Positions 709 through 60,222 of a stretch of 64,000 nt of DNA are shown piece by piece. Source of the stretch: Eledone cirrhosa (Eukaryota). Position numbers and translations under genes: made by a program. The DNA is taken from contig OZ024764.1 in assembly GCA_964016885.1 (NCBI GenBank), positions 4,960,001 through 5,024,000 on the forward strand. Direction: 5' to 3'. Position 1 is the stretch's first letter; every line of letters begins with the position of its first letter. The notes under the pieces are model-generated. The model searched no databases, was not told the origin of the DNA, and was given only the letters and a program-made list of their open reading frames with translations.

Positions 709-750
709 GACTGATACAGAGGAGGGTACCGCTCCAGAAAATAATGACGA
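709..750 (+). CDS. Microexon E1 (class A1, 42 nt, phase 2-2): TDTEEGTAPENND(E)
   Basis: Acceptor ttttttgtaatcacAG, donor GTacgt; paralog of the exons at 30525, 46542 and 53905; open in the frame shared by all 13 exons. Confidence 0.75.
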
Positions 751-8127: not shown

Positions 8128-8205
8128 GAACACCACTAATTTCTCCGAAAAATTTATTACTTCTCTCCAATACAGCCTTAATAGCAATGATTACAAGAAA
8201 TTTAT
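8128..8205 (+). CDS. Microexon E2 (class B, 78 nt, phase 2-2): NTTNFSEKFITSLQYSLNSNDYKKF(M)
   Basis: tttaac branch-like motif, acceptor tttctcattacAG, donor GTaagt; length is a multiple of 3. Confidence 0.8.
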
Positions 8206-16479: not shown

Positions 16480-17800
16480 AAAGAGGAAGGTTTCAGACTT
16501 CTGGAATTCCTTCACGAAAATGTCCTATTTATCTGTAACACAAACTTCAAAAAATGAGACAACCACTTAATAACATATAGATCATGTGAGCCCACCAGCT
16601 AGATAGATTTCCTTGTTACCATAAGACAGAGTGACTGTTATAAACACAAAGTCCCTCCCTAGTGAAGAATGCACCTCCCAACATACCTTAGGAGACAAAC
16701 TGGAAGAAAAGATTATAGATCAAAATCAAAAGGTCTTAAAGTCAATTTGGTAAAGACTAAAGTTCTAGTAAGTAGAAAGGAAAACAGGGCCCAGATCTCT
16801 TCAGGTAAACTGTCCTGCTCAGTGTGCAGAAAAGGAGTAGGTAGAAATTCCATCCTATGTCCCATATAGAAATGATGGGTACACAAAAGATGTCGTGGGA
16901 TCTCAGGGAGGCTAACAAAGAACGTAGCTTCTACATGTGGCCAATGAACAGGGGCAGGAAATATCAAGAGCTCTCGGGTTACAATCTCCTTCAAATGCCC
17001 AGAAGTCTCTGCAGAGGTGGTAGATAGTTTCTGTTACCTAGGTGACTAAATCAGCAGTGGAGTAGGGTGGTCCCAAAACTCAGTAACAAGAGTGAGATTA
17101 GATTGGAGAAAGTGCAGGGATCTACTACTACTGCTAACAACAAAAAGTTTTTCCCTCAAAATGAAGGGCAGACTGTATGATGCAGGTATACAAACAACAA
17201 TGTTGCACAGCAGCGAGACCTGGGCACTGTGTGTAGAAGATCTGTAAAGATTGGAAAGAAATGAAGCCTCCATGCTTCAATGGATGTGCCATAGTAATAT
17301 ATGCAAATGGCAAAACATAAATGTACTGCGAGAGAAATTAGGCATAAGAGGGGTTACATGCAGTGTGCAGGAGAGGGATTGTTTTGGTATAGACATGTGA
17401 TGTGTATGAAGGGTGACAGCTGTATAAAAAGGTGCCGAACAAACAAAGTTGACAGAAACCGTGGAGTGGGCAGGTCTAGGAAGACATGGGATGAGGTAAG
17501 GAAAGCTGACTTTGCACAATTACACCTCGCTAAGGCAATGACACAGGAGGGTGACCTCTGGCGCTATGCACAATTATAGAGGACCTGCCCTCATAAATCC
17601 ACGAGCTGAGGCATATATCTAGTATGTAACACCTTCCCCACCATCATCCCTCCCAAACACCTTCACCCCTATAACTACATCCACAATCCACCAGACATTT
17701 TCCCTACCAACACCCCACACAAGTTCCCAAACCTCACCATAAAGTGGTCCTGCTGCAGCCATGACAAATGTGCCCAGTCCACACTGTACAGTGGTCTTGT
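16480..17800 (+). mobile_element. Degenerate RTE LINE fragment with 3' end
   Basis: KGLKVNLVKTKVL...WYRHVMCM...GVGRSRKTWDEV; multiple stops. Copies at about 44850-46050, 51180-52500 and 58500-59830; partial at 28683-29180. Confidence 0.85.
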
Positions 17801-18147
17801 AGGTGTCCTGCCAAAAATCAATATTGGGCCTTAAAATCTTGAGTCCCTTTTGTTCTGTGTATGAACATAAATAATTGTTTCTACTTTTGGCACAAGGCCA
17901 GCAATTATCCAGTGCATTACTGGTACTTTATTTTATCGACCCCGTAAGGATGAAAGGCAAAGTTAACCTTGGCGGGATTTGAACTCAGATCATACAGGGA
18001 GGTAACTATGCTTCAAAGCATGGTGTCCGACTCTCTACCGATACTGCCAATCCACCGCCTGAACATAAATAAATAATGTAATATATATATATATGTATGT
18101 GTGTGTGTATCTATTTATATATTTAACTATATTTTTTGTAATCACAG

Positions 18148-18189
18148 GACTGTTCCACTGCAGAGTTCCGCTAGAGGAAACAGTGACGA
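18148..18189 (+). CDS. Microexon E3 (class A2, 42 nt): TVPLQSSARGNSD(E)
   Basis: Acceptor ttttttgtaatcacAG, donor GTaagt; open in phase 2. Confidence 0.8.
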
Positions 18190-18490
18190 GTAAGTTTTAG
18201 TTTTACACACTATCTAACCATTATTCTATCTGTTCCTTCCCGTCTCTCTCTCTCTTTATATATATATATTTATATATACTAAGGTGTATTATTGGTTGTG
18301 TAAAACGGTCCAATAAATTTTTGTTAGCAATATTAAGTTCTCCACGCTTTTGTATATCTCCAATTCCATTCAAGGGAACAGCTAGATGATGTAAAAAAAT
18401 CCGAAGGCAAGGTAAAATTTCCAATCATTTTAATCATGTCGTGATTAAAATGATTGGAAATCTTACCTTCCCTTTGGATTTTCATTTTGA

Positions 18491-18525
<35 letters not shown>

Positions 18526-18994
18526 GACTCTGTCTCTTATAAACCACGTTGGCTATTATGACACTCTCTCCAACATAGAGAGCTATGTTGGCGATTATGA
18601 CTCTCTCTCTCCCTCTCTATGTTGGCTATTATGACTCTCTCTCTCTCTCTATGTTGGCTATTATGACTCTCTCTCTCTCTCTATGTTGGCTATTATGACT
18701 CTCTCTCTCTCTATGTTGGCTATTATGACTCTCTCTCTCTCTATGTTGGCTATAATGACTCTCTCTCTCTATCTATGTTGGCTATTATGTCTCTCTCTGT
18801 TCAAGGTTTATGAAGTTAGATGAACATCTTCAAAGTCCTCCCATATTCGCCTTGTCTAATATGCGTTCTTGTACCTGATTATTTCCCCCAAATCTCCTGG
18901 GAAGTTATAAACCATGATGGCTACCTATCTCACAATTTCTCTCCTGCCCACCCCCTCATACCACCATAGTCTATTCGACCAATCAAACCTCAGA

Positions 18995-20367
18995 AACATG
19001 TCCCCACCCATTACCAACCCCAACAAACTCTGCCATTACTACTACTTCTACTTTTCTTCTAGCCCTTACCAGCCCCAACAAACCCTGACATTATTACTAC
19101 TATTGTCCTTCTAGCCATGGGCTGAGGATAAATGGGGCTACCCCAAATTAATAAATGAATATGAATCCGCGAGTTACCAAGCACCCATGCAAAGCTTTAA
19201 TTCAGAGACAGGAAGCATACACACCCCACTGCAAAAATTCACCCTTTCCCACGAGTGGTGGCAAATGCCCAAAACTCCGAGTTGGAACCATCAATGTAAG
19301 CACAATGAAAGGAAGAGCAGGAGAAATTGTAGAGATGCTAGAGCGAAAGAAAATTGATGTATGCTGTGTGCAAGAGACTAGATGGAGAGCAGAGTCCGCT
19401 GGAGTCCTTGCAGGCAGAAGTCAGTGCTACCAATTTGTCTGGGTAGCAAATGACAACAGGATGGGAGGTGTAGCTATCCTATTAGCTGACAAATGGGTAG
19501 ATAAGGTAATCTCAGTGAACAGGGTGAATGCAAGAATAATGAAACTTGGACTAGTCCTGAATAAAACAATTGCCACAATAATATCAGCTTACGCACCCCA
19601 ATTGGGGTTGCCAGCTGACTATAGCGGGGAATTTAGTTTAGAGGTCGGTGTCCACCAGGGCTCTGTTCTTAGCCCACTCCTGTTCGTTAAAGTATTGCAA
19701 GCAATAATGGAGGTGATTATGACCGGATGCCCATGGGAACTCCTATATGCGGATCATCTCACACTTATAGCCGAATCTATGGTGGAACTATACTTGCTCA
19801 GTATGTAGGAAAGGAGTAGGCTGGCTGCAAAAGGTTTTCCCCTCAAAATGAAAAGCAGACTGTATGATGTGGGTATACGAATAGCAATGTTACATAGTAG
19901 TGAAACCTGGGCGCCGTCTGTGGAAGACTTGCATAGATTAGAAAGAAACGAAGCCTGCATGCTCCGATGGATGTGTAATAGTAATATACGCAAACGGCAA
20001 AGCATAAATGAATTGAGAGAGTGACTGAGCATAAGAGGAATGAAATGCTGTGTGCAGGAGAGGATGTTGCATTGGACATGTGATGCGTATGAAGGATGAC
20101 AGCTGTATAAAAAGGTGTAGAGCAGTAGAAGTCGATGGAAGCCGTGGAGTGGGGAGACCCAAGAAGAGCTGGGATGAGGTGATAAAAGCCGGACTCACTG
20201 TAAATGAGGTTGGTGTTAGGAAGGGCATCCAGCTGTAGGAATCAAGCCAGAATCAGTTCCTGTATGAGCAAGACAAGGTCAGCTGAACAGACACTGCCCA
20301 CAACAGGACAACCCGTCTAACCCATGCTTGCGTGGAAGAATGGACGTAAAACAGTGATGAAGATGAT
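18995..20367 (+). mobile_element. Internally deleted RTE LINE, copy 3
   Basis: 217-aa EN-RT fusion ORF 19155-19808, YADH. Confidence 0.9.
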
Positions 20368-20370
20368 ATA

Positions 20371-21752
20371 TCATATATGCCAGTGTACTATTTGACATTT
20401 GGAGCCTAAAAATATCTCTCCAAAACCAGGGGTCGACTTGTCTGCTGAATATAGTATGTTACCTTTACCACTGAGGGGTAAACAGTGAAACTGCCTGCCT
20501 AACACTTGTTGTACACCACTTACCATAACTCTAGCAACCCACCACATTTATTTCTACTGAATCTCATATTTGTTAAGTTTAACGTAGAGATTATAGTAAT
20601 ATCAATGTCTTGCTGTAGCTTATAGGGTAGGTTACCATAGGGCAGGTTACTGTAGGGTAGGATACTGTCTGGTAGGTTACCATAGGGTAGGTTACTGTAG
20701 GGTAGGTTACTGTAGTGTAGGTTACTGTAGGGTAGGTTACTATAGGGTAGGTTACTGTAGGGTAGATTACTCTAGGCTAGGTTACCATAGGGTAGGTTAC
20801 TGTAGTGTAGGTTACCATAGGGTAGGTTACCACAGAGTAGGTGACCATAGGGTATGTTATTATAGGGTAGGTAACTGTAGGTTAGGTTACTGTAGGGTAG
20901 GTTACCTTATGGTAAGTTACTATAGGGTAGGTTACCATAGTGTAGGTTACCTTATGGTAAGTTACTATAGGGTAGGTTACCATAGGGTAGGTTACCTTAT
21001 GGTAGGTTACTTTATGGTAAGTTACTATAGGGTAGGTTACCATAGGGTAGGTTACCTTATGGTAAGTTACTATAGGGTAGGTTACCATAGTGTAGGTTAC
21101 CTTATGGTAAGTTACTATAGGGTAGGTTACCATAGGGTAGGTTACCTTAGTGTAGGTAAGAATAGGGTAGGTTACTATAGGTTAGGTCACTGTAGGGTAG
21201 GTTAGCATAAGGTAGGTTACCATAGGGTAGGTTACTGTAGGTTAGGTTACCATATGGTAGGTTACCATAGGTTAGGTTAGCAATGGGTAGGTTACTATAG
21301 GTTGTTACCATAAGGTAGGTTACTGTATGGTGGGTTACCATAGGGTAGGGTACCATAAAGTAGGTTATTATAGTGTAGGTTACCTTAGGATAGGTAACCA
21401 TAGGGTAGGTTACTATGGGGTAAGTTACCATAGGGTAGGTTCCCATAGGGTAGGTTAACATAAGCTAGGTTACCTCAGGGTAGGTTACCATACCATAAAG
21501 TAGGTTACCATAGGTTTGTTAAGGTTAGGCTAGGCTGGTTTACTCGGTGAGTTAAAACTCACTTGTGACTGTAGTGTTTTAGAAGTGTCTCAATCTTTCA
21601 TGCACCACTAAATTTTTTAACTATTTCCCCTGAAACTGCCTTATTTTTGGGGGTCATCTTATCAATCGAATAGCGTCCTAAATCTAAATTATACTTCAGA
21701 ATTTTAGGGGCCGACTTATGTACCGGATAGACTTGTACACCGGCATATATGG
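20371..21752. mobile_element. TIR element with 15-bp minisatellite, copy 3 (contracted array)
   Basis: Same termini as copy 1. Confidence 0.75.
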
Positions 21753-24700
21753 TATATATATATATATGCATGGAGGCACATGGCTTAGTGGTTAGAGCAT
21801 TGGTCATGCAATCGAAAGGTTGTGAGTTCAATTCTCAGACCGGGTGATGTGTTGGTTCCTTGAGCAAGACACTTTATTTCACATTGCTCCAGTTTACTCA
21901 GCTGTAGAAATGAGATGATAGGGACTGGGGTCCCTATCATTCCACTGCAAAGTGGTCGTGGAGGTGCCACGGCAAAAAAAGCACCCAGCACTCACTGTAA
22001 ATGAGGTTGGTGACAGGAAGGGAATACAGCTGTAGAAATCAAGCCAGAATCAGTTCCCGTCCCGCCCTTGCAAGCAGGGAAAAGTGGACGTAAAATGAAA
22101 TGATGAAAGAGAGATAGAGAGAAAGAGAGGGAGTGAGAGAGATACATTAAAACAATAACAGAAGGTCTGACTGGAGAATTTACTTTAGAATTCCTTCACG
22201 GAAATGTCTTATTTATCTGTAACACAAACTTCAAAAAACAAGACAACCACTTAATAATCGATAGATCAAGTGAGCCCTCCAGCTAGATAGATTTCCTTGT
22301 TACCAGAAGATAGAGTGACTGTTATAAACACAAAGTCCTTCCCTAGTGAAGAATGCACCTCCCAACATACCTTAGAATACAACCTGGAAGAAAAGAGTAT
22401 AGATCAAAATCAAAAGGTCTTAAAGTCAATTTGGTAAAGACTAAAGTTCTAGTAAGTAGAAAGGAAAACTGGGCCCAGATCTCTTCAGGTAAACTGTCCT
22501 GCTCAGTGGGCAGAAAAGGAGTAGGTAGAAATTCCATCCTATGTCCCATATAGAAATGATGGGTACACAAAAGATGTTGTGGGATCTCAGGAAGGCTAAC
22601 AAAGAACGTAGCTTCTACATGTGGCCAGTGAACAGGGGCAGGAAATATCAAGAGCTCTCGAGTTACAATCTCCTTCAAATGCCCAGAAGTCTCTGCAGAG
22701 GTGGTAGATAGTTTCTGTTACTTAGGTGACTAAATCAGCAGTGGAGGAGGGTGGTCCAAAAACTCAGTAACAAGAGTGAGATTAGATTGGAGAAAGTGCA
22801 GGGATCTACTACTACTGCTAACTACAAAACATTTTTCCATCAAAATGAAGGGCAGACTGTATGATGCAGGTATACAAACAACAATGTTGCACAGCAGCGA
22901 GACCTGGGCACTGTGTGTAGAAGATCTGTAAAGATTGGAAAGAAATGAAGCCTCCATGCTTCAATGGATGTGCCATAGTAATATATGCAAATGGCAAAAC
23001 ATAGGTTACCATTGGGTAGGTTACTGTAGGGTAGGGTACCATAGGGTGGGTTACCATAGCGTAGGTTACTGAATGGTAGGTTACATTTCGTTAGGTTACT
23101 GTAGGGTCGGTTACATAGGGTAGGTTACCATAGGGTGGGTTACCATAGGGTAGGTTACTGTAGGGTAGGTTACCATAGGGTAGTTATGTAGGGTAGGTTA
23201 CCATAGTGTAGGTTACTGTAGGGTAGGTTACCATAGAGTAGGATACTGTAGGGTAGGTTACCATAGGGTAGTTATGTAGGGTAGGTTACCATAGTGTAGG
23301 TTACTGTAGGGTAGGTTACCATAGAGTAGGATACTGTAGGGTAGGTTACCATAGGTTAGGTCACTGTAGGGTAGGTTACCATAGGGTAGGTTATTATAGG
23401 GTAGGTTACCATAGGTTAGGTTACTATAGGGTTGGTTGCCATAGGGTATGTTACCATAGGGTAGGTTACTATAAGGTAGGTTACCATACCATAGGTTAGG
23501 TTACCATATGTTTGTTAAGGTTAGGCTAGGCTGGTTTACTCGGTGAGTTAAAACTCACTTGCGACTGTAGTGTTTTAGAAGAAGTGTCTTAATCTTTAGT
23601 GCGCCACTAAATTTTTTAACTATTTCCCCTGAAACTGCCTTATTTTTTGGGTGTCGTCTTATGAATCGAATAGTGTCGTATAGGACTATCTGGCATGTTT
23701 TCTATGGCTGGATGCCCTTCCTAACACCAACCACGTTTACAGTGTGGGGACTGGGAGGTTTTTACCATGTTAACTACACGGCCAATTTACAGCGTGGACT
23801 GTGTGTTTTATTGTCATGACACCTACACAACCTCATTTATTTAGGACTGGATGTTGTGTGACCAACATAATTTTACAGAGATGGGGGTGGGAGTAGTGGG
23901 GTGGGGGCGTATATTTGGTTAAGAGGTGCCTACTGACTGTAGGTTTCGCTTTGTACTTAGGCAAGGGTGGTCTTCTGTATTACTGCGTAGCGCCAAAGAT
24001 CTCGGTCCAGTGACATTGTCTTGGAGAGGTGTAAGTGTGTGAGATCGGAATTTATCAATTCGTCCCAGGGTTTTCTGGGTCTGCCTACTCCGTGGCTACC
24101 ATCTATTTTGATCGCCCTGCACTTTTTTATACAGCTGTCGTCTTTCATGCGCATCACGTGACCATACCAACGTAGTCTTCTCTCGAGTAAACAACATCTG
24201 ATCCCTCTTATTCCTAATTTCTCACTTAGTTCATTTATGCTTTGCCGTTCACGTATATTACTATTACACATCCAGCGGAGCATGCAAACTTCATTCCTCT
24301 CCAGTCTGCGTATATCCTCTGCACACAATGCCCAAGTCTCACTGCCATGTAACATTGTTGTCCGTATGCAGGCATCATACAGCCTGCCTTTCATTTTTAG
24401 AGAGAACCCTTTAGCGGCCAATCGTACAATGAAAAGAGCGTCTGTGATACTTTTACCTGACACAAACCCAAACTGCATTTCATCTAGATCAATTCTCTCT
24501 CTGATTAGTTGCGCTATTACTTTTTCTGTGACCCTCATGAACTGGTCAATTAATTTAATGCCTCTATAGTTTCCCCTATCTAGGGCATCTCCTTTACCCT
24601 TGTAGCAGTTAATGATGATGATATATATATAAAAGAAATAAGATTTCGCTTCAAGCATATCTTTATACAATATGTATAAATATTTTGTATCTCCAAAGAA

Positions 24701-25028
24701 ATACGGTTTTAGGAAGCCTTAGCTCTGCAAACCCTGGGGGCTAACGTCCTCTGGTGATGTCCAGCAGAAGCAAGGGGGACAACCGTCTATGCATTTCAGG
24801 CTTAACTGGCCATCGTCAGGACAGTCCCTCCCACTGCTTGCGACTGCTGGCCAGTTAAGCATGAAATGCATAGACGGTTGTCCCCCTTGCTTCTGCTGGA
24901 CATTACCAGAGGCCTTGAAACCCTAAGTCCCTTTTGTTCTGTGTATGAACAGAAATAAATAATGTAATATATATATATGTATGTGTGTGTATCTATTTAT
25001 ATATTTAACTATATGTTTCTCATTACAG

Positions 25029-25106
25029 GAACACCACTAATTTCTCCGAAAAATTTATTACTTATCTTTTATGCAGCCTTCCCTCCAATGATTACAAGAA
25101 ATTTAT
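25029..25106 (+). CDS. Microexon E4 (class B, 78 nt): NTTNFSEKFITYLLCSLPSNDYKKF(I)
   Basis: Acceptor tttctcattacAG, donor GTaagt; 10 clustered substitutions relative to E2 inside near-identical flanks. Confidence 0.8.
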
Positions 25107-25963
25107 GTAAGTGTTACCTTAACATACTGTCTAACCATTGTTTAATCTGCTCCTCCCTCTACCTCTCCCTTTATACACACACACACATATATACCCCTAT
25201 ATATATATGTATACACACACACACACAAATATATACACATATATACATATATATATACACACATATATATATAATCACATATATATATACATATATACAA
25301 GCGAGACACGGCCTGCTGACCAATCTCGCCTTAAGTGGGACAAAACCGTCCAACCCATGCTAGCATGGAAGATGGACTTTAAATGATGATGATATATACA
25401 CACTGACACATATATATATACATATATATATACACATATATATACGCATATATTTATATATATATATGAGTTCAAGTCCGCCGAGGTTAACTTTGCCTTT
25501 CATCTTTACGAGGTCGATAAAATAAAGTACCAGTGGTGTACTGGGGTAATCGCTGGCCTTGTGCCAAAAGTAGAAACTATATTTATATATATATATATAT
25601 AACCAAAGATTAATATGGTTTGTTGATTACTTAATGAATACAGTTTTGCAATAGATTAGAAGCACTCAACAGTGAAAGTTTTCCTGGACTTTTTAATATT
25701 AACAAATGAAAAATATTCTCATAATCAAAATATATACTTTATTATATACATTTCAAAGGTATATGACATACCTCTACGGTCTTGATTCTTCAATTCCAGT
25801 ATTGCAGTCACTGCCAATACTGGAATTGAAGAATCAAGACCGTAGCGCTATGTCATAATCATATATTTTGTCTGATGAGGACATACTGAAAAAACAACAA
25901 TATATATAATATAGTATATATTTTGATTATGCGAATATTTTTCATTTGTTAACATTTTGAATA

Positions 25964-26013
<50 letters not shown>

Positions 26014-26079
26014 AGGTAAAATGAATAATGAAAGAGTTGCAAGCCTTTAAAACATATCTTTATAAAGCTCTTACATATG

Positions 26080-26165
<86 letters not shown>

Positions 26166-27852
26166 TCATTATCATTTTATGTCCGCTTTTCCCTGCTTGC
26201 AAGGGTTGGGCTCTCACCACCACTGGCCATGTTTTTCGTGGTCTTCCTTTTACTGGGATTTTTTAGCACCTCTTTACCCAGCAGTCATCCTCGATGCGCA
26301 TCACTTGTCCATACCATCTCAGTCTTCTCTCCTGCACACCACAACTCATCCCCAGTTTCTCTCTCAACTCATCTATGGTCTTGTCGTTCACGCACATTGA
26401 CACACACATACATACACATATATATATTAATTCTATTGACTGATTAATAGCTCTTGTTAATTTTAAAACCATTCTGTTGAGAGCTTAATTCGTTCTGTGA
26501 TATTTTGCAATTTTGCAATAACACACATACTGAATTCATCCGCCAAAACTAAGGGCTGCCCCCCCCCCCCCCCCCCCCCTGTGAAGCCCCACGTGGGTTT
26601 TGATAACGGTCAGTCCTTGGCTTGGCACTGAACTAAAAGCCTGTTGAGAAAGTGACTTCCTTGTTCGATCATCATACAAAAAGCTTAACATTATTTGTCT
26701 AAGTAGACAGTACTTGATTTAGGAGTTGCAGAAACCCAATACTGGATATTACCAACCTTCCAGGGGTCCGGGTATAATTTTCCATCATATTTTATTTGTT
26801 TTACTCGAATTACTTGGTCGTGTCTATGGCTGTGCGGATAATTGTTTAACCATCGTCTCAGTGTGTTTGGCCTTTTAACTTATGTTGTTGCTCTAGTTCA
26901 CTAGCTTCTATGGAGCGCCTGCCACACATCTCGGAAGTTGTTTTTCGTTAATTTCCAATAGCAGAAATGCAATTCTCGCTAATTTATATATATATATATA
27001 TATATATACACGTATAAGGGATAACAAAATATCGTTATAGGTAATCCAGGTAGAAGTTGTGAATACTCTGTATTGTGGTTAGTCTTAGTCTACGGCGTTG
27101 TTTGACTCAACAAGAGGTTTCCGTAGGTGGCAAGTATTTGAGTTCTCTTGAATTCCTATGTAAGTTTATCTTGGAGTAATAATATTGAAAGCGTGAAGAA
27201 TAACATGGTCAACAGTACAAAAGAAGGTTTTTATTTACAGTATTAACAATTGTTTCACTGATTAAGTTGTCTAAAAATCGCTGAAAACTTAAAGCTGTGC
27301 CACTCAATCTACTATATATATTGGAAGTGGTCGGACGTTGTATATTTAAGTAAATAAGTAGGTGTAGTCGGATAAACGTCGAAACGGCTTGGTAGAATGC
27401 AGCGAAAATTTACACAGTTATGCAGAATTGTAGCAGTTAATGATGATATATATGTAAAAGAAATAGGATTTCGCTTCAAGCATATCTTTATACAATATGT
27501 ATAAATATTTTGTATCTCCAAAGAAATACGGTTTTAGGAAGCCTTAGCTCTGCAAACCCTGGGGTGCTAACGTCCTCTGGTGAGGTCCAGCAGAAGCAAG
27601 GGGGACAACCGTCTATGCATTTCAGGCTTAACTGACCATCGTCTGGACAGTCCCTCCCGCTGCTTGCGACTGCTGGCCAGTTAAGCGTGAAATGCATAGA
27701 CGGTTGTCCCCCTTGCTTCTGCTGGACATCACCAGAGGCCTTGAAACCCTAAGTCCCTTTTGCTCTGTGTATGAACAGAAATAAATAATGTAATATATAT
27801 ATATGTATGTGTGTATCTATTTATATATTTAACTATATTTTTCTCATTACAG

Positions 27853-27888
27853 CTCATATGATTCTTTAACCGATTACAAGAAAGTTAT
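27853..27888 (+). CDS. Microexon E5 (class B, 36 nt): SYDSLTDYKKV(M)
   Basis: Acceptor tttttctcattacAG, donor GTaagt; the other two frames contain stops (TGA, TAA). Confidence 0.8.
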
Positions 27889-29529
27889 GTAAGTGTTACC
27901 TTAACAAACTGTCTAACCATTGTTTAATCTGCTCCTCCCTCTACCTCTCCCTTTATACACACACACACATATATACCCCTATATATATATATGTATACAC
28001 ACACACACACAAATATATACACATATATACATATATATATACACACATATATATACATATATACAAGCGAGACACGGCCTGCTGACCAATCTCGTCTTAA
28101 GTGGGACAAAACCGTCCAACCCATGCTAGCATGGAAGATGGACTTTAAATGATGATGATATATATACACTGACACATATATATACATATATACAAATATA
28201 TATACGCATATATCTATATATATATATATGAGTTCAAGTCCGCCGAGGTTAACTTTGCCTTTCATCTTTACGAGGTCGATAAAATAAAGTACCAGTGGCG
28301 CACTGGGGTAATCGCTGGCCTTCTGCCAAAAGTAGAAACTATAATTATATATATATAACCAAAGATTAATATGGTTCGTTGATTACTCAACGAATACAGT
28401 TGTACAATAGATTAGAAGCACTCAACAGTGAAATTTTCCTGGAGTTTTTAATATTATTCAAAATATTAACAAATGAAAAATATTCTCATAATCAAAATAT
28501 ATACTTTATTATATATATTTCAAAGGTATATGACATACCTCTACGGTCTTGATTATTCAATTCCACTATTGGCAGTGACTATATATTTATAGGCAAAATG
28601 AATAATGAAAGAGTTGCAAGCCGTTAAAACATATCTTTATAAAGCTCTTACATATGTTATATATATATATATCATCATCATCAGCAGCGAGACCTGGGCA
28701 CTGTGTGTAGAAGATCTGTAAAGATTGGAAAGAAATGAGCCTCCATGCTTCAATGGATGTGCCATAGTAATATATGCAAATGGCAAAACATAAATGTACT
28801 GTGAGAGGATTTAGGCATAAGAGGGATTAGATGCAGTGTGCAGGAGTGGGATTGTTTTGGTATAGACATGTGATGTGTATGAAGGGTGACAGCTGTATAA
28901 AAAGGTGCCAAACGCACAAAGTTGACAGAGGCCGTGGAGTGGGCAGGTCTAGGAAGACTTGGGATGAGGTAAGGAAAGCTGATTTTGCACAATTACACCT
29001 AGCTAAGGCAATGACACAGGATGGTGACCTCTGGCGCTATGCACAATTATAGAGGACTACATCCACAATCCACCAGACATTTTCCCTACCAACACCCCAC
29101 ACAAGTTCCCAAACCTCACCATAAAGTGGTCCCGCTGCAGCCATGACAAATATGTCCAGTCCACACTGTACAGTGGTATTGTAGGTGTCCTGCCAAAAAT
29201 CAATATTGGGCCTTAAAACCTTGAGTCCCTTTTGTTCTGTGTATGAACATAAATAATTGTTTCTACTTTTGGCACAAGGCCAGCAATTATCCAGTGCATT
29301 ACTGGTACTTTAATTTATCGACCCCGTAAGGATGAAAGGCAAAGTTAACCTCGGCGGGATTTGAACTCAGATCATACAGGGAGGTAACTATGCTTCAAAG
29401 CATGGCGTCCGACCCTCTACCGATACTGCCAATCCACCGCCTGAACATAAATAAATAATGTAATATATATATATATGTATGTGTGTGTGTATCTATTTAT
29501 ATATTTAACTATATTTTTTGTAATCACAG

Positions 29530-29571
29530 GTCTGATTCACTGCCGAGGTCCACTATAGGAAACAGTGACGA
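29530..29571 (+). CDS. Microexon E6 (class A2 variant, 42 nt): SDSLPRSTIGNSD(E)
   Basis: Acceptor ttttttgtaatcacAG, donor GTaagt; 7 substitutions relative to E3. Confidence 0.8.
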
Positions 29572-29857
29572 GTAAGTTTTAGTTTTACACACTATCTAAC
29601 CATTATTCTATCTGTTCCTTCCCGTCTCTCTCTCTCTTTATATATACTAAGGTGTATTATTGGTTGTGTAAAACGGTCCAATAAATTTTTGTTAGCAATA
29701 TTAAGTTCTCCACGCTTTTGTATATCTCCAATTCCATTCAAGGGAACAGCTAGATGATGTAACAAAATCCGAAGGCAAGGTAAAATTTCCAATCATTTTA
29801 ATCATGTCGTGATTAAAATGATTGGAAATCTTACCTTCCCTTCGGATTTTCATTTTG

Positions 29858-29888
<31 letters not shown>

Positions 29889-30524
29889 TGACTCTGTCTC
29901 TTATAAACCACGTTGGCTATTATGACACTCTCTCCAACATAGAGAGCTATGTTGGCTAATATGACTCTCTCTGTATGTTGACTATAATGACTCTCTCTCT
30001 ATGTTGGCTATTATGACTCTCTCTCTCTCTCTATGTTGGCTATAATGACTCTCTCTCTCTCTATGTTGGCTATTATGTCTCTCTCTGTTCAAGCTTTATG
30101 AAGTTAGATGAACATCTTCAAAGTCCTCCCATATTCGCCTTGTCTAATATGCGTTCTTGTACCTGATTATTTCCCCCAAATCTCCTGGGATGTTATAAAC
30201 CATGATGGCTACCTATCTCACAATTTCTCTCCTGCCCACCCCCTCACACCACCATAGTCTATTCGACCAATCAAACCTCAGCAACATGTCCCCCACCCAT
30301 TAAAAACCCCAACAAACTCTGCCATTACTACTACTTCTACTTTTCTTCTAGCCCTTACCAGCCCTTTATTTTATCGACCCCGTAAGGATGAAAGGCAAAG
30401 TTAACCTCGGCGGGATTTGAACTCAGATCGGAAAGGGACGTAACTAAATAAATAATGTAATATATATATATGTATTTGTGTTTGTATCTATTTATATATT
30501 TAACTATATTTTTTGTAATCACAG

Positions 30525-30566
30525 GACTGATACAGAGGAGAGTACCGCTCTAGAAAAGAATGACGA
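30525..30566 (+). CDS. Microexon E7 (class A1, 42 nt): TDTEESTALEKND(E)
   Basis: Canonical AG/GTaagt; the other two frames contain stops (TGA, TAG). Confidence 0.8.
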
Positions 30567-30630
30567 GTAAGTTTTAGTTTTACATACTATCTAACCATTA
30601 TTCTATCTGTTCCTTCCCGTCTCTCTCTCT

Positions 30631-30694
<64 letters not shown>

Positions 30695-31382
30695 AGGTGT
30701 ATTATTGGTTGTGTAAAACGGTCCAATAAATTTTTGTTAGCTTTTGTATATCTCCAATTCCATTCAAGGGAACAGCTAGATGATGTAAAACGGAGTATTT
30801 GTATCAAAATGAAAATCCAAAGGCAAGGTAAAATTTCCAATCATTTTAATCTCGCCGTGATTAAAATGATTGCAAATCTTACCTTGCCTTTGGATTTTCA
30901 TTTTGATATATATATATATATGTATATATATGACTCTGTCTCTTATAAACCACGTTGGCTATTATGACACTCTCTCCAACATAGAGAGCTATGTTGGCTA
31001 ATATGACTCTCTCTCTCTCTCTCTCCCTCTCTATGTTGGCTATTATGACTCTCTCTCTGTCCCACTCTATGTTGGCTAATATGACGCTCTCTCTCTCTCT
31101 ATGTTGGCTATTATGACTCTCTCTCTCTCTATGTTGGCTATTATGTCTCTCTCTCTCTATCTATGTGGGCTATTATGTCTCTCTCTGTTCAAGGTTTATG
31201 AAGTTAGTTGAACATCTTCAAAGTCCTCCCATATTCGCCTTGTCTAATATGCGTTCTTGTACCTGATTATTTCCCCCAAATCTCCTGGGATGTTATAAGC
31301 CATGATGGCTACCTATCTCACAATTTCTCTCCTGCCCACCCCCTCATACCACCATAGTCTATTCGACCAATCAAACCTCAGA

Positions 31383-37659: not shown

Positions 37660-37689
37660 GAACACCACTAATTTCTCCAAAACCGTTAC
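37660..37689 (+). CDS. Microexon E8 (class B, 30 nt): NTTNFSKTV(T)
   Basis: Acceptor tttttctcattacAG, donor GTaagt; same 5' end as E2/E4 but 48 nt shorter, in frame. Confidence 0.8.
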
Positions 37690-40387: not shown

Positions 40388-40417
40388 TCCCACCACCACT
40401 ACAACCATGACATTTAT
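40388..40417 (+). CDS. Microexon E9 (class B, 30 nt): PTTTTTMTF(I)
   Basis: Acceptor tttttttctcattacAG, donor GTaagt; flanks near-identical to those of E5 while the exon body is largely different. Confidence 0.8.
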
Positions 40418-46541: not shown

Positions 46542-46583
46542 TGCAGATACAAAGGAGAGTACCGCTCTAGAAAAGAATGAGGA
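46542..46583 (+). CDS. Microexon E10 (class A1 variant, 42 nt): ADTKESTALEKNE(E)
   Basis: Acceptor ttttttgtaatcacAG, donor GTaagt. Confidence 0.8.
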
Positions 46584-52849: not shown

Positions 52850-52891
52850 GACTGTTCCACTGCAGAGTTCCGCTAGAGGAAACAGTGACGA
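52850..52891 (+). CDS. Microexon E11 (class A2, 42 nt): TVPLQSSARGNSD(E)
   Basis: Canonical AG/GTaagt; identical to E3. Confidence 0.8.
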
Positions 52892-53904: not shown

Positions 53905-53946
53905 GACTGATACAGAGGAGAGTACCGCTCTAGAAAAGAATAACGA
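53905..53946 (+). CDS. Microexon E12 (class A1, 42 nt): TDTEESTALEKNN(E)
   Basis: Canonical AG/GTaagt; one nonsynonymous change relative to E7. Confidence 0.8.
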
Positions 53947-60180: not shown

Positions 60181-60222
60181 GTCTGTTCCACTGCAGAGTT
60201 CCGCTAGAGGAAACAGTGACGA
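60181..60222 (+). CDS. Microexon E13 (class A2, 42 nt): SVPLQSSARGNSD
   Basis: Canonical AG/GTaagt; one nonsynonymous change relative to E3/E11. Confidence 0.8.

Follow-up and report, generated by a model that had tools for sequence, protein, structure and literature searches.

The 64,000-nt window analysed here (C25:4960001-5024000, where C25 is the Eledone cirrhosa contig OZ024764.1 that carries it, in a genome of 3.0 Gb) contains on its + strand 13 CAG/GT-bounded segments of 30–78 nt, eight of class A (42 nt) and five of class B. These 13 cassettes are part of an array of 103 micro-exons (54 class A and 49 class B; 55 distinct sequences) that extends over approximately 530 kb (C25:4871418-5399532) with a median spacing of 6.1 kb, as seen when 664 kb around the window were read. 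We found that the class A exons diverge much faster than the introns flanking them, and our results support positive selection on these exons and homogenisation of the introns acting together. The array precedes the transmembrane exon of an M13 gene that is neprilysin-like, and the selected cassettes probably encode a variable cytosolic tail of that protein.

All eight class A cassettes counted in the preliminary description of the window were located (Table 1). As it had stated, the exons E3 and E6 are separated by 7 differences in 42 positions, every one of them nonsynonymous (T>S, V>D, P>S, Q>P, S>R, A>T, R>I); the flank identity that it had judged by eye was also confirmed, with 0 of 85 upstream and 0 of 70 downstream bases differing (exon vs. 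the 155 flank bases, Fisher P=1.3e-5). The remaining changes cited (E1/E7, E7/E12, E3/E13 and E7/E10) are correct, though individually weak, with single-pair exon vs. flank P values of 0.25, 0.21, 0.38 and 0.012, respectively. When all class A cassettes of the window were compared, exons were faster than flanks at P<0.05 in 22 of the 28 pairs, which are non-independent. Seven nonsynonymous changes out of seven in E3/E6 are by themselves not significant (approximately 0.75^7); a case for selection has to be made on all cassettes of the array, where it holds for class A. Short-read contigs were available from two public runs behaving as genomic DNA of one sample, possibly the assembly's own. They contain E3 and its flanks with 0 differences, together with an exon of the T type, one of the types of class A (P, T and the divergent R); a 36-nt exon among them is of the type found in the paralog at 25.1 Mb (see below) and not of the R type. 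E6 was not seen among the short-read contigs of this one public sample; its sequence is present four times, identically, in the assembly. As far as testable, the E3/E6 pattern is no assembly error.

The divergence of the whole array was profiled in pairwise bins with simple repeats masked, 12 bins reaching out to 2.5 kb. Class A exons (1403 of 1431 pairs) showed a divergence of 0.243, while all 12 flank bins, which are mostly transposon-derived DNA, lay between 0.006 and 0.034. We also formed 27 disjoint class A pairs, using each cassette once. Pairs matched on the upstream and measured on the downstream flank gave 97/1134 exon vs. 152/32999 flank differences (18.6-fold), a second flank-matched set, measured on the opposite flank, gave 53/1134 vs. 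205/36723 (8.4-fold; 46 nonsynonymous and 3 synonymous changes), and pairs matched on exon likeness, a choice biased against the claim, gave 27/1134 vs. 338/61848 (4.4-fold, P=9e-10). The inversion of the usual pattern, with exons fast and flanks slow, was therefore borne out at 4- to 19-fold. For class B, 24 disjoint pairs were formed; 13 are equal in length and gave 30/526 exon differences, and the flanks of all 24 gave 63/9235; length differs in the other 11. Eight block pairs, chosen by hand out of the exon list, added up to 14/1171 exon vs. 111/85311 flank differences, a sum that is no unbiased test.

Results of the comparison between nonsynonymous and synonymous changes showed what sets the class A exons apart. 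On their spanning tree (18 of 19 edges) 38.5 changes are nonsynonymous and 3.5 are synonymous, which departs from the mutation spectrum of the introns at P=0.010; relative to the flank-based expectation, and with edges conditioned on a difference, synonymous changes occur at 0.9 times and nonsynonymous changes at 3.4 times the expected number. A codon model gave an omega of 9.6 for the 16 distinct P- and T-type coding sequences (likelihood-ratio test, LRT, P=0.001 against 1) and of approximately 4 for all 19 class A sequences (P=0.005). In the constant exons synonymous changes stood at 0.6, 1.2 and 1.1 times the intron rate and nonsynonymous ones at 1.4, 1.9 and 1.4 times the neutral rate (P=0.14, 5e-5 and 0.006), and every indel is a multiple of three; an apparent twofold synonymous excess in these exons disappeared with wider flanks and a correction for base composition. 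Because class A synonymous sites change at the intron rate while nonsynonymous sites do not, we conclude that class A is under positive selection and not hypermutation. The positive selection that the preliminary description had offered as one of two explanations thus stands for class A; it does not extend to class B, where omega is not above 1.

The second of these explanations, homogenisation of introns by gene conversion, has its own signature. Between the two main types, P and T, the exon itself diverges by 0.306; downstream, the value falls to 0.024 over the first 250 nt, to 0.019 up to 1 kb and to 0.0073 at 1–2.5 kb, where pairs of one type have 0.0062. When cassettes were assigned a nearest neighbour by downstream flank, that neighbour was of the other type in 0/50 cases at 0–250 nt, 5/47 up to 1 kb and 9.3/48 at 1–2.5 kb. 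E3 and E7, for example, have 11 differences in their 42 exon bases but only 2 in 1421 intron bases 1–2.5 kb downstream, and the same-type cassettes E1 and E7 have 12 in 1500 far-downstream bases. As between-type divergence decays to background within 1–2.5 kb, recombination homogenises the introns; homogenisation was thus upheld, whether by conversion or by unequal crossing-over.

The units of the array consist of fragments of long and short interspersed nuclear elements (LINEs and SINEs), microsatellites and a 15-nt satellite, and differ from each other by approximately 0.6–3%. The SINE, LINE fragments and microsatellites of the window have an octopod look. The phase-2 frame has stops in none of the 55 distinct exons, vs. 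21/55 and 41/55 for the other two frames. Cassette lengths are multiples of three in 100 of 103 cases, the other three becoming so with use of a nearby GT; the GTAAGT donor is retained in 96 cassettes and altered in 7, and joining all 103 creates no stop at any end-start junction. Full inclusion would yield 1,377 codons, vs. approximately 633 constant codons, and a tail of 1,377 residues rich in T, E, N, S and K. A basic end is found in 30 and a YxxPhi motif in 16 of the 35 distinct class B exons, and the persistence of both may reflect splice-site constraint. YxxPhi motifs have a meaning in sorting and signalling. The 15-nt satellite (25–160 copies) occurs at window positions 20622-21492 and 23002-23488 and in 9 other places, is found in most units and is strongly G-skewed. 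At four divergent R-type class A cassettes (C25:5100139, 5276887, 5338386 and 5355120) the class B downstream flank follows approximately 170 nt further on, and the two of these sites that were read hold a class B exon remnant whose acceptor is replaced by a SINE end. Block duplications of 20–23 kb with 99.8–100% identity lie at C25:5114600-5180000 and C25:5180550-5268000; such near-identical higher-order blocks show that the array is still expanding, or else it is partly mis-assembled.

Table 1. Micro-exon cassettes of the window (positions counted from the first letter of the window).
Cassette	Position	Strand	Class and type	Length (nt)	Sequence	Remarks
E1	709..750	+	class A, T-type	42	TDTEEGTAPENND	phase 2; donor weakened to GTACGT
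E2	8128..8205	+	class B	78	NTTNFSEKFITSLQYSLNSNDYKKF	
E3	18148..18189	+	class A, P-type	42	TVPLQSSARGNSD	identical contig in public DNA runs
E4	25029..25106	+	class B	78	NTTNFSEKFITYLLCSLPSNDYKKF	
E5	27853..27888	+	class B	36	SYDSLTDYKKV	
E6	29530..29571	+	class A, P-type variant	42	SDSLPRSTIGNSD	7 residue changes vs. E3; near flanks identical
E7	30525..30566	+	class A, T-type		TDTEESTALEKND	
E8	37660..37689	+	class B	30	NTTNFSKTV	
E9	40388..40417	+	class B	30	PTTTTTMTF	
E10	46542..46583	+	class A, T-type		ADTKESTALEKNE	
E11	52850..52891	+	class A			sequence same as E3
E12	53905..53946	+	class A, T-type		TDTEESTALEKNN	
E13	60181..60222	+	class A, P-type		SVPLQSSARGNSD	

The preliminary description had compared the pattern with conotoxin and snake-toxin genes and with gamete-recognition and immune/allorecognition genes. 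The selected peptides are neither secreted and toxin-like nor of the gamete surface; we find the cassettes instead upstream of the transmembrane exon of the neprilysin-like gene. This exon (C25:5413283-5413395, phase 2 to 1), the next one downstream of the array, encodes an anchor with a 17-residue hydropathy of 3.0 (2.5–3.0 in the paralogs). Nineteen further exons (C25:5416317-5629521), all open and with chained phases, encode the ectodomain and end in a stop at C25:5629521, which makes an intact host gene of 20 exons (anchor plus ectodomain); C25:5417963, considered as the last exon, was rejected as an internal M13 exon. A PF01431 match above the cut-off was obtained at C25:5629399, exons taken singly match PF01431 or PF05649 in 4 cases out of 12, each below the cut-off, and the last exon resembles human neprilysin at E=1e-4. 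Of the motifs given for active neprilysins in the accessible text of PMC8223033, NAY/NAFY is present in the host gene as VNAFY, and ENIAD(xGG) appears in all four paralogs as ENIADLGA, with the final G changed to A. Yet HKIFH replaces the zinc motif HExxH, and LLFW stands for the C-terminal CxxW in all four; because of these two replacements the protein is predicted, by the same criteria, to be neprilysin-like and probably non-catalytic. The position of the catalytic glutamate (C25:5618006-5618073 and paralogs) is K in the host gene, Q in the paralog at 7.50 Mb and E in the other two. In all four, a Y seems to occupy the position that corresponds to the transition-state histidine of neprilysin. 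The small exon preceding the zinc-motif exon has its acceptor region repeated in a tandem array of an approximately 46-nt unit (C25 ~5458000-5617370, the middle 76 kb unread), which reaches up to ~160 kb here and a few kb in the paralogs and forms a long run of 3′ splice-site look-alikes.

At the 5′ end, a scan of 111 kb upstream for a signal-peptide exon gave nothing credible. An ATG with donor common to the two older paralogs was rejected as the start, as it lies within a dispersed repeat; an ATG might be made at a junction, as 39 cassettes end in AT and 80 begin with G. A candidate for a non-coding first exon, whose donor is kept in the 25.1-Mb paralog, was placed at C25:4864560-4864935, 6.5 kb upstream of the array. 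This exon holds a 57/69-nt tandem unit with a GTAAGT donor-like site in each unit, the copy number varying among three copies of the region. A 72-nt inverted repeat (98.6%; C25:4865007-4865078 and 4869019-4869090) encloses 4 kb of the first intron, including a candidate ATG exon, and a piece of the first exon with its intron, 85% alike and with the donor lost, is found on another chromosome (C4:192475071-192475915). Searches for relatives of the protein with a single 59-aa exon and with the last-exon frame found none, an ESM Atlas search gave at best 0.88 for an unnamed entry, and HMMER against 1.84 billion representatives gave one match, an unrelated tandem-repeat protein; all of these are weak blanks.

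Three paralogs share the same ectodomain and carry 4, 1 and 9 cassettes at the same place. The paralog at 7.16-7.25 Mb has 4 cassettes and HEIFH, and a second, partial 5′ copy of it has 2 cassettes. At 7.50 Mb, where the zinc motif reads HQIFH, a single cassette coding RRWGKWPAKHKCC stands directly before the anchor. Type II membrane proteins are typical of the M13 family, and this basic dicysteine cassette would fit a cytosolic juxtamembrane segment of such a protein. The paralog at 25.1 Mb (HEIFH) has seven A-like and two B-like cassettes, with an exon divergence of 0.066 vs. 0.016 in the flanks (21 pairs) and variants that are mostly amino-acid changing; this independent array repeats the fast-exon pattern. 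Hypervariability extends to the transmembrane exon, which shows 25/89 and 33/98 differences between paralogs, plus in-frame indels, in introns that are ~96% alike; in 3 of 4 the anchor is followed by a basic site, KR or RRK. A weak match to the M13 C-terminus at C25:24978256-24978339 (-), head to head with the 25.1-Mb paralog, is possibly a fifth member.

We favour, as reasonably likely, a mechanism in which selection on class A, intron-homogenising recombination and putative splicing of cassettes to the anchor give a variable N-terminal tail, predicted to be cytosolic. Unequal exchange between transposon-rich units would multiply a symmetric exon with the frame unharmed, continued exchange would wipe out intron differences, and selection would retain and add amino-acid differences in the exons. 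The cassettes would be spliced to the transmembrane exon, probably in variable subsets by analogy with SmVAL6 (PMC2270263, accessible text), and the product would be many versions of a disordered tail, joined to a constant part that is likely a non-catalytic, peptide-binding ectodomain. Class B cassettes may be copies of an ancestral juxtamembrane exon, with its basic end and YxxPhi-like motif, and class A cassettes may serve as spacer or bait modules. As to the driver, the most likely one in our view, at somewhat less than even odds and as a guess, would be that the tail is bound or cut by a protein of an intracellular pathogen or parasite and is caught in an arms race with it. Alternative drivers may be reproduction, or venom or digestion with gland secretion; octopus salivary and digestive glands are reported to contain neprilysin-1-like transcripts (PMC12607849, accessible text), which does not imply membership of the host subfamily. 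It is conceivable, though rather unlikely, that the locus generates diversity on a larger scale: some 100 micro-exons, under diversifying selection and combinatorially spliced, would equip a neprilysin without catalytic activity with cytosolic tails in thousands of versions and make it a variable receptor or bait, in which tyrosine-motif class B cassettes would serve signalling or sorting and class A cassettes, evolving fast, would be decoys offered to pathogen proteins as substrates.

Several results weigh against the favoured mechanism. The codon tests use 13 codons and assume a tree despite recombining units. In class B the spanning tree (19 of 29 edges) has 41.5 nonsynonymous and 15.5 synonymous changes, with no nonsynonymous excess (P=0.83); synonymous sites are at 5–19 times the flank expectation, and the codon model for the B78 exons gave an LRT P of 0.52. 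The high synonymous divergence of class B may come either from old exons within younger flanks or from local mutability. Four-gamete conflicts inside class A exons occur at one site only (8/78 pairs), too few to show conversion inside exons. The four largest recent block pairs, with 2/733 exon vs. 54/60503 flank differences, hold too few changes for a test, and the lack of nonsense changes is, taken alone, weak (P ~0.04). A phase-2 ATG exon near C25:4866207 is a candidate for the start codon and is without counterpart in the two older paralogs. Finally, the all-inclusive tail contains 46 N-X-S/T sequons vs. approximately 34 expected from its composition, which makes the predicted cytosolic topology tentative.

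The alternative that survives best keeps the same selection and homogenisation and has most or all cassettes included constitutively, in one low-complexity tail of approximately 1,377 aa, so that diversity would lie between repeats, individuals and paralogs and not between isoforms. The stop-free junctions and the widely retained donor agree with it, as does the finding that no Dscam-type docking or selector complementarity was detected when the shared flanks were compared with the first and last intron only. However, the array tolerates numerous exactly duplicated cassettes, some dead donors and remnants lacking an acceptor, the basic end of most class B exons suits a place beside the anchor (or reflects the splice sites), and the small symmetric exons of SmVAL6 are described as skipped in many combinations (PMC2270263, accessible text); constitutive inclusion seems unlikely to us.

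Quite improbable is an account without positive selection, in which conversion homogenises the introns and the exons escape it (because mismatches or indels bar exchange, or because selection does no more than oppose the loss of differences) and evolve neutrally within a constrained frame. It fits class B, where both kinds of change are raised, omega is near 1 and 11/24 disjoint pairs differ in length, as well as the decay of divergence with distance. It does not fit class A, with synonymous sites at the intron rate and an omega of ~4–10, nor the constant exons, where only nonsynonymous change exceeds the neutral rate, nor the mostly amino-acid-changing variants of the 25.1-Mb array. Hypermutation targeted to exons, or cDNA-templated change such as edited transcripts copied back, could account for changes that end sharply at exon borders and for the synonymous rate of class B; it is made very improbable by the synonymous rate in class A and the constant exons, which equals that of introns, and by the exon spectrum, with 46 transitions among 107 changes vs. 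48% in introns and no A/G excess.

That introns are unusually constrained, by splice regulators or docking sites, and exons merely look fast, is hardly credible and largely refuted. Admittedly, the cassettes share 85 nt of upstream and 70 nt of downstream sequence with each other and with paralogs 20 Mb away, but intron constraint fails as an explanation because transposon-derived DNA 0.5–2.5 kb off is equally or less diverged (0.006–0.011); complements of the shared flanks, searched for in the first and last intron, were only short AT-rich chance matches (<=18 nt), and Rfam gave no match in window 17500-31000. A non-coding repeat or assembly artefact, to which the highly repetitive region and its near-identical 20-kb blocks might point, is no more credible in view of the frame bias, the cassette lengths, the variants that recur identically across copies and the three exon types found in shared flanks within short-read contigs.

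Diversifying selection this strong usually acts on secreted or surface-exposed parts; here it falls on tiny cassettes of the predicted intracellular tail of a likely dead peptidase. The array, with 54 class A copies and kilobases of neutral flank around each, is a natural replicate set for separating selection from gene conversion, and cassette numbers of 1, 4, 9 and 103 occur among four young paralogs. The host protein is a candidate cephalopod variable receptor in immunity or reproduction, and the diversity-locus reading, if true, would mean that something like the Dscam strategy operates at the membrane's inner face. Fast exons within introns that stay alike are already known, from opsins and snake toxins and, with the same likeness, from conotoxins. 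What differs is probably the target, a variable tail that would lie in the cytosol and belong to a peptidase that is likely dead; our literature search, which covered open-access articles without their supplements, met with no description of such a micro-exon array, whether in an M13 tail or in a cephalopod.

In Dscam1 and the clustered protocadherins, tandem variable cassettes are joined to a constant region, and fixed-size extracellular domains are chosen by docking sites or promoters. The array resembles them in its tandem variable cassettes and constant region, but its cassettes are tiny, unequal and on the predicted cytosolic side. The host protein shares with the Drosophila Nepl proteins a predicted type II anchor, an M13 ectodomain, lineage-specific expansion and the loss of catalytic motifs, although most Drosophila Nepl are predicted to be secreted (PMC8223033 and PMC2259306, accessible text). 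With the micro-exon genes (MEGs) of schistosomes it has in common many small symmetric exons of the same phase, transposon-rich introns and a high ratio of nonsynonymous to synonymous change (PMC4350168, accessible text), and most of the coding region lies in such exons here as well (1,377 vs. ~633 codons). SmVAL6, in which a normal domain carries a micro-exon tail spliced in many combinations (PMC2270263), has the layout seen here, where splicing is putative. However, MEG products are secreted with a signal peptide and are described in that text as flatworm-restricted (PMC4350168), whereas here an anchor exon follows the array and no signal-peptide exon was found in the upstream scan; the exons of the array are, moreover, tandem copies of one ancestral exon, with the introns duplicated too, and lie N-terminal to the transmembrane segment.

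Snake venom toxin genes, with their accelerated exon evolution, are alike in that coding segments diverge mainly by amino-acid changes between similar introns (PMC2711939, accessible text). They are unlike the array in that they form multigene families of secreted proteins, while the cassettes lie inside one gene, upstream of a membrane anchor. The closest form of divergence profile is that of the opsin genes for red and green in humans, whose exon 5 is a 'peak of divergence' under gene conversion: duplicate introns are homogenised and a sharp peak stands on the selected exon (PMC3924837, accessible text). Our array shows such an exon peak decaying into homogenised introns, with the nonsynonymous excess present in class A and absent in class B. 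Yet the opsins are two whole genes with two key sites (PMC3924837), whereas here approximately 100 intragenic cassettes of 9–26 codons are involved and diversification is continuing.

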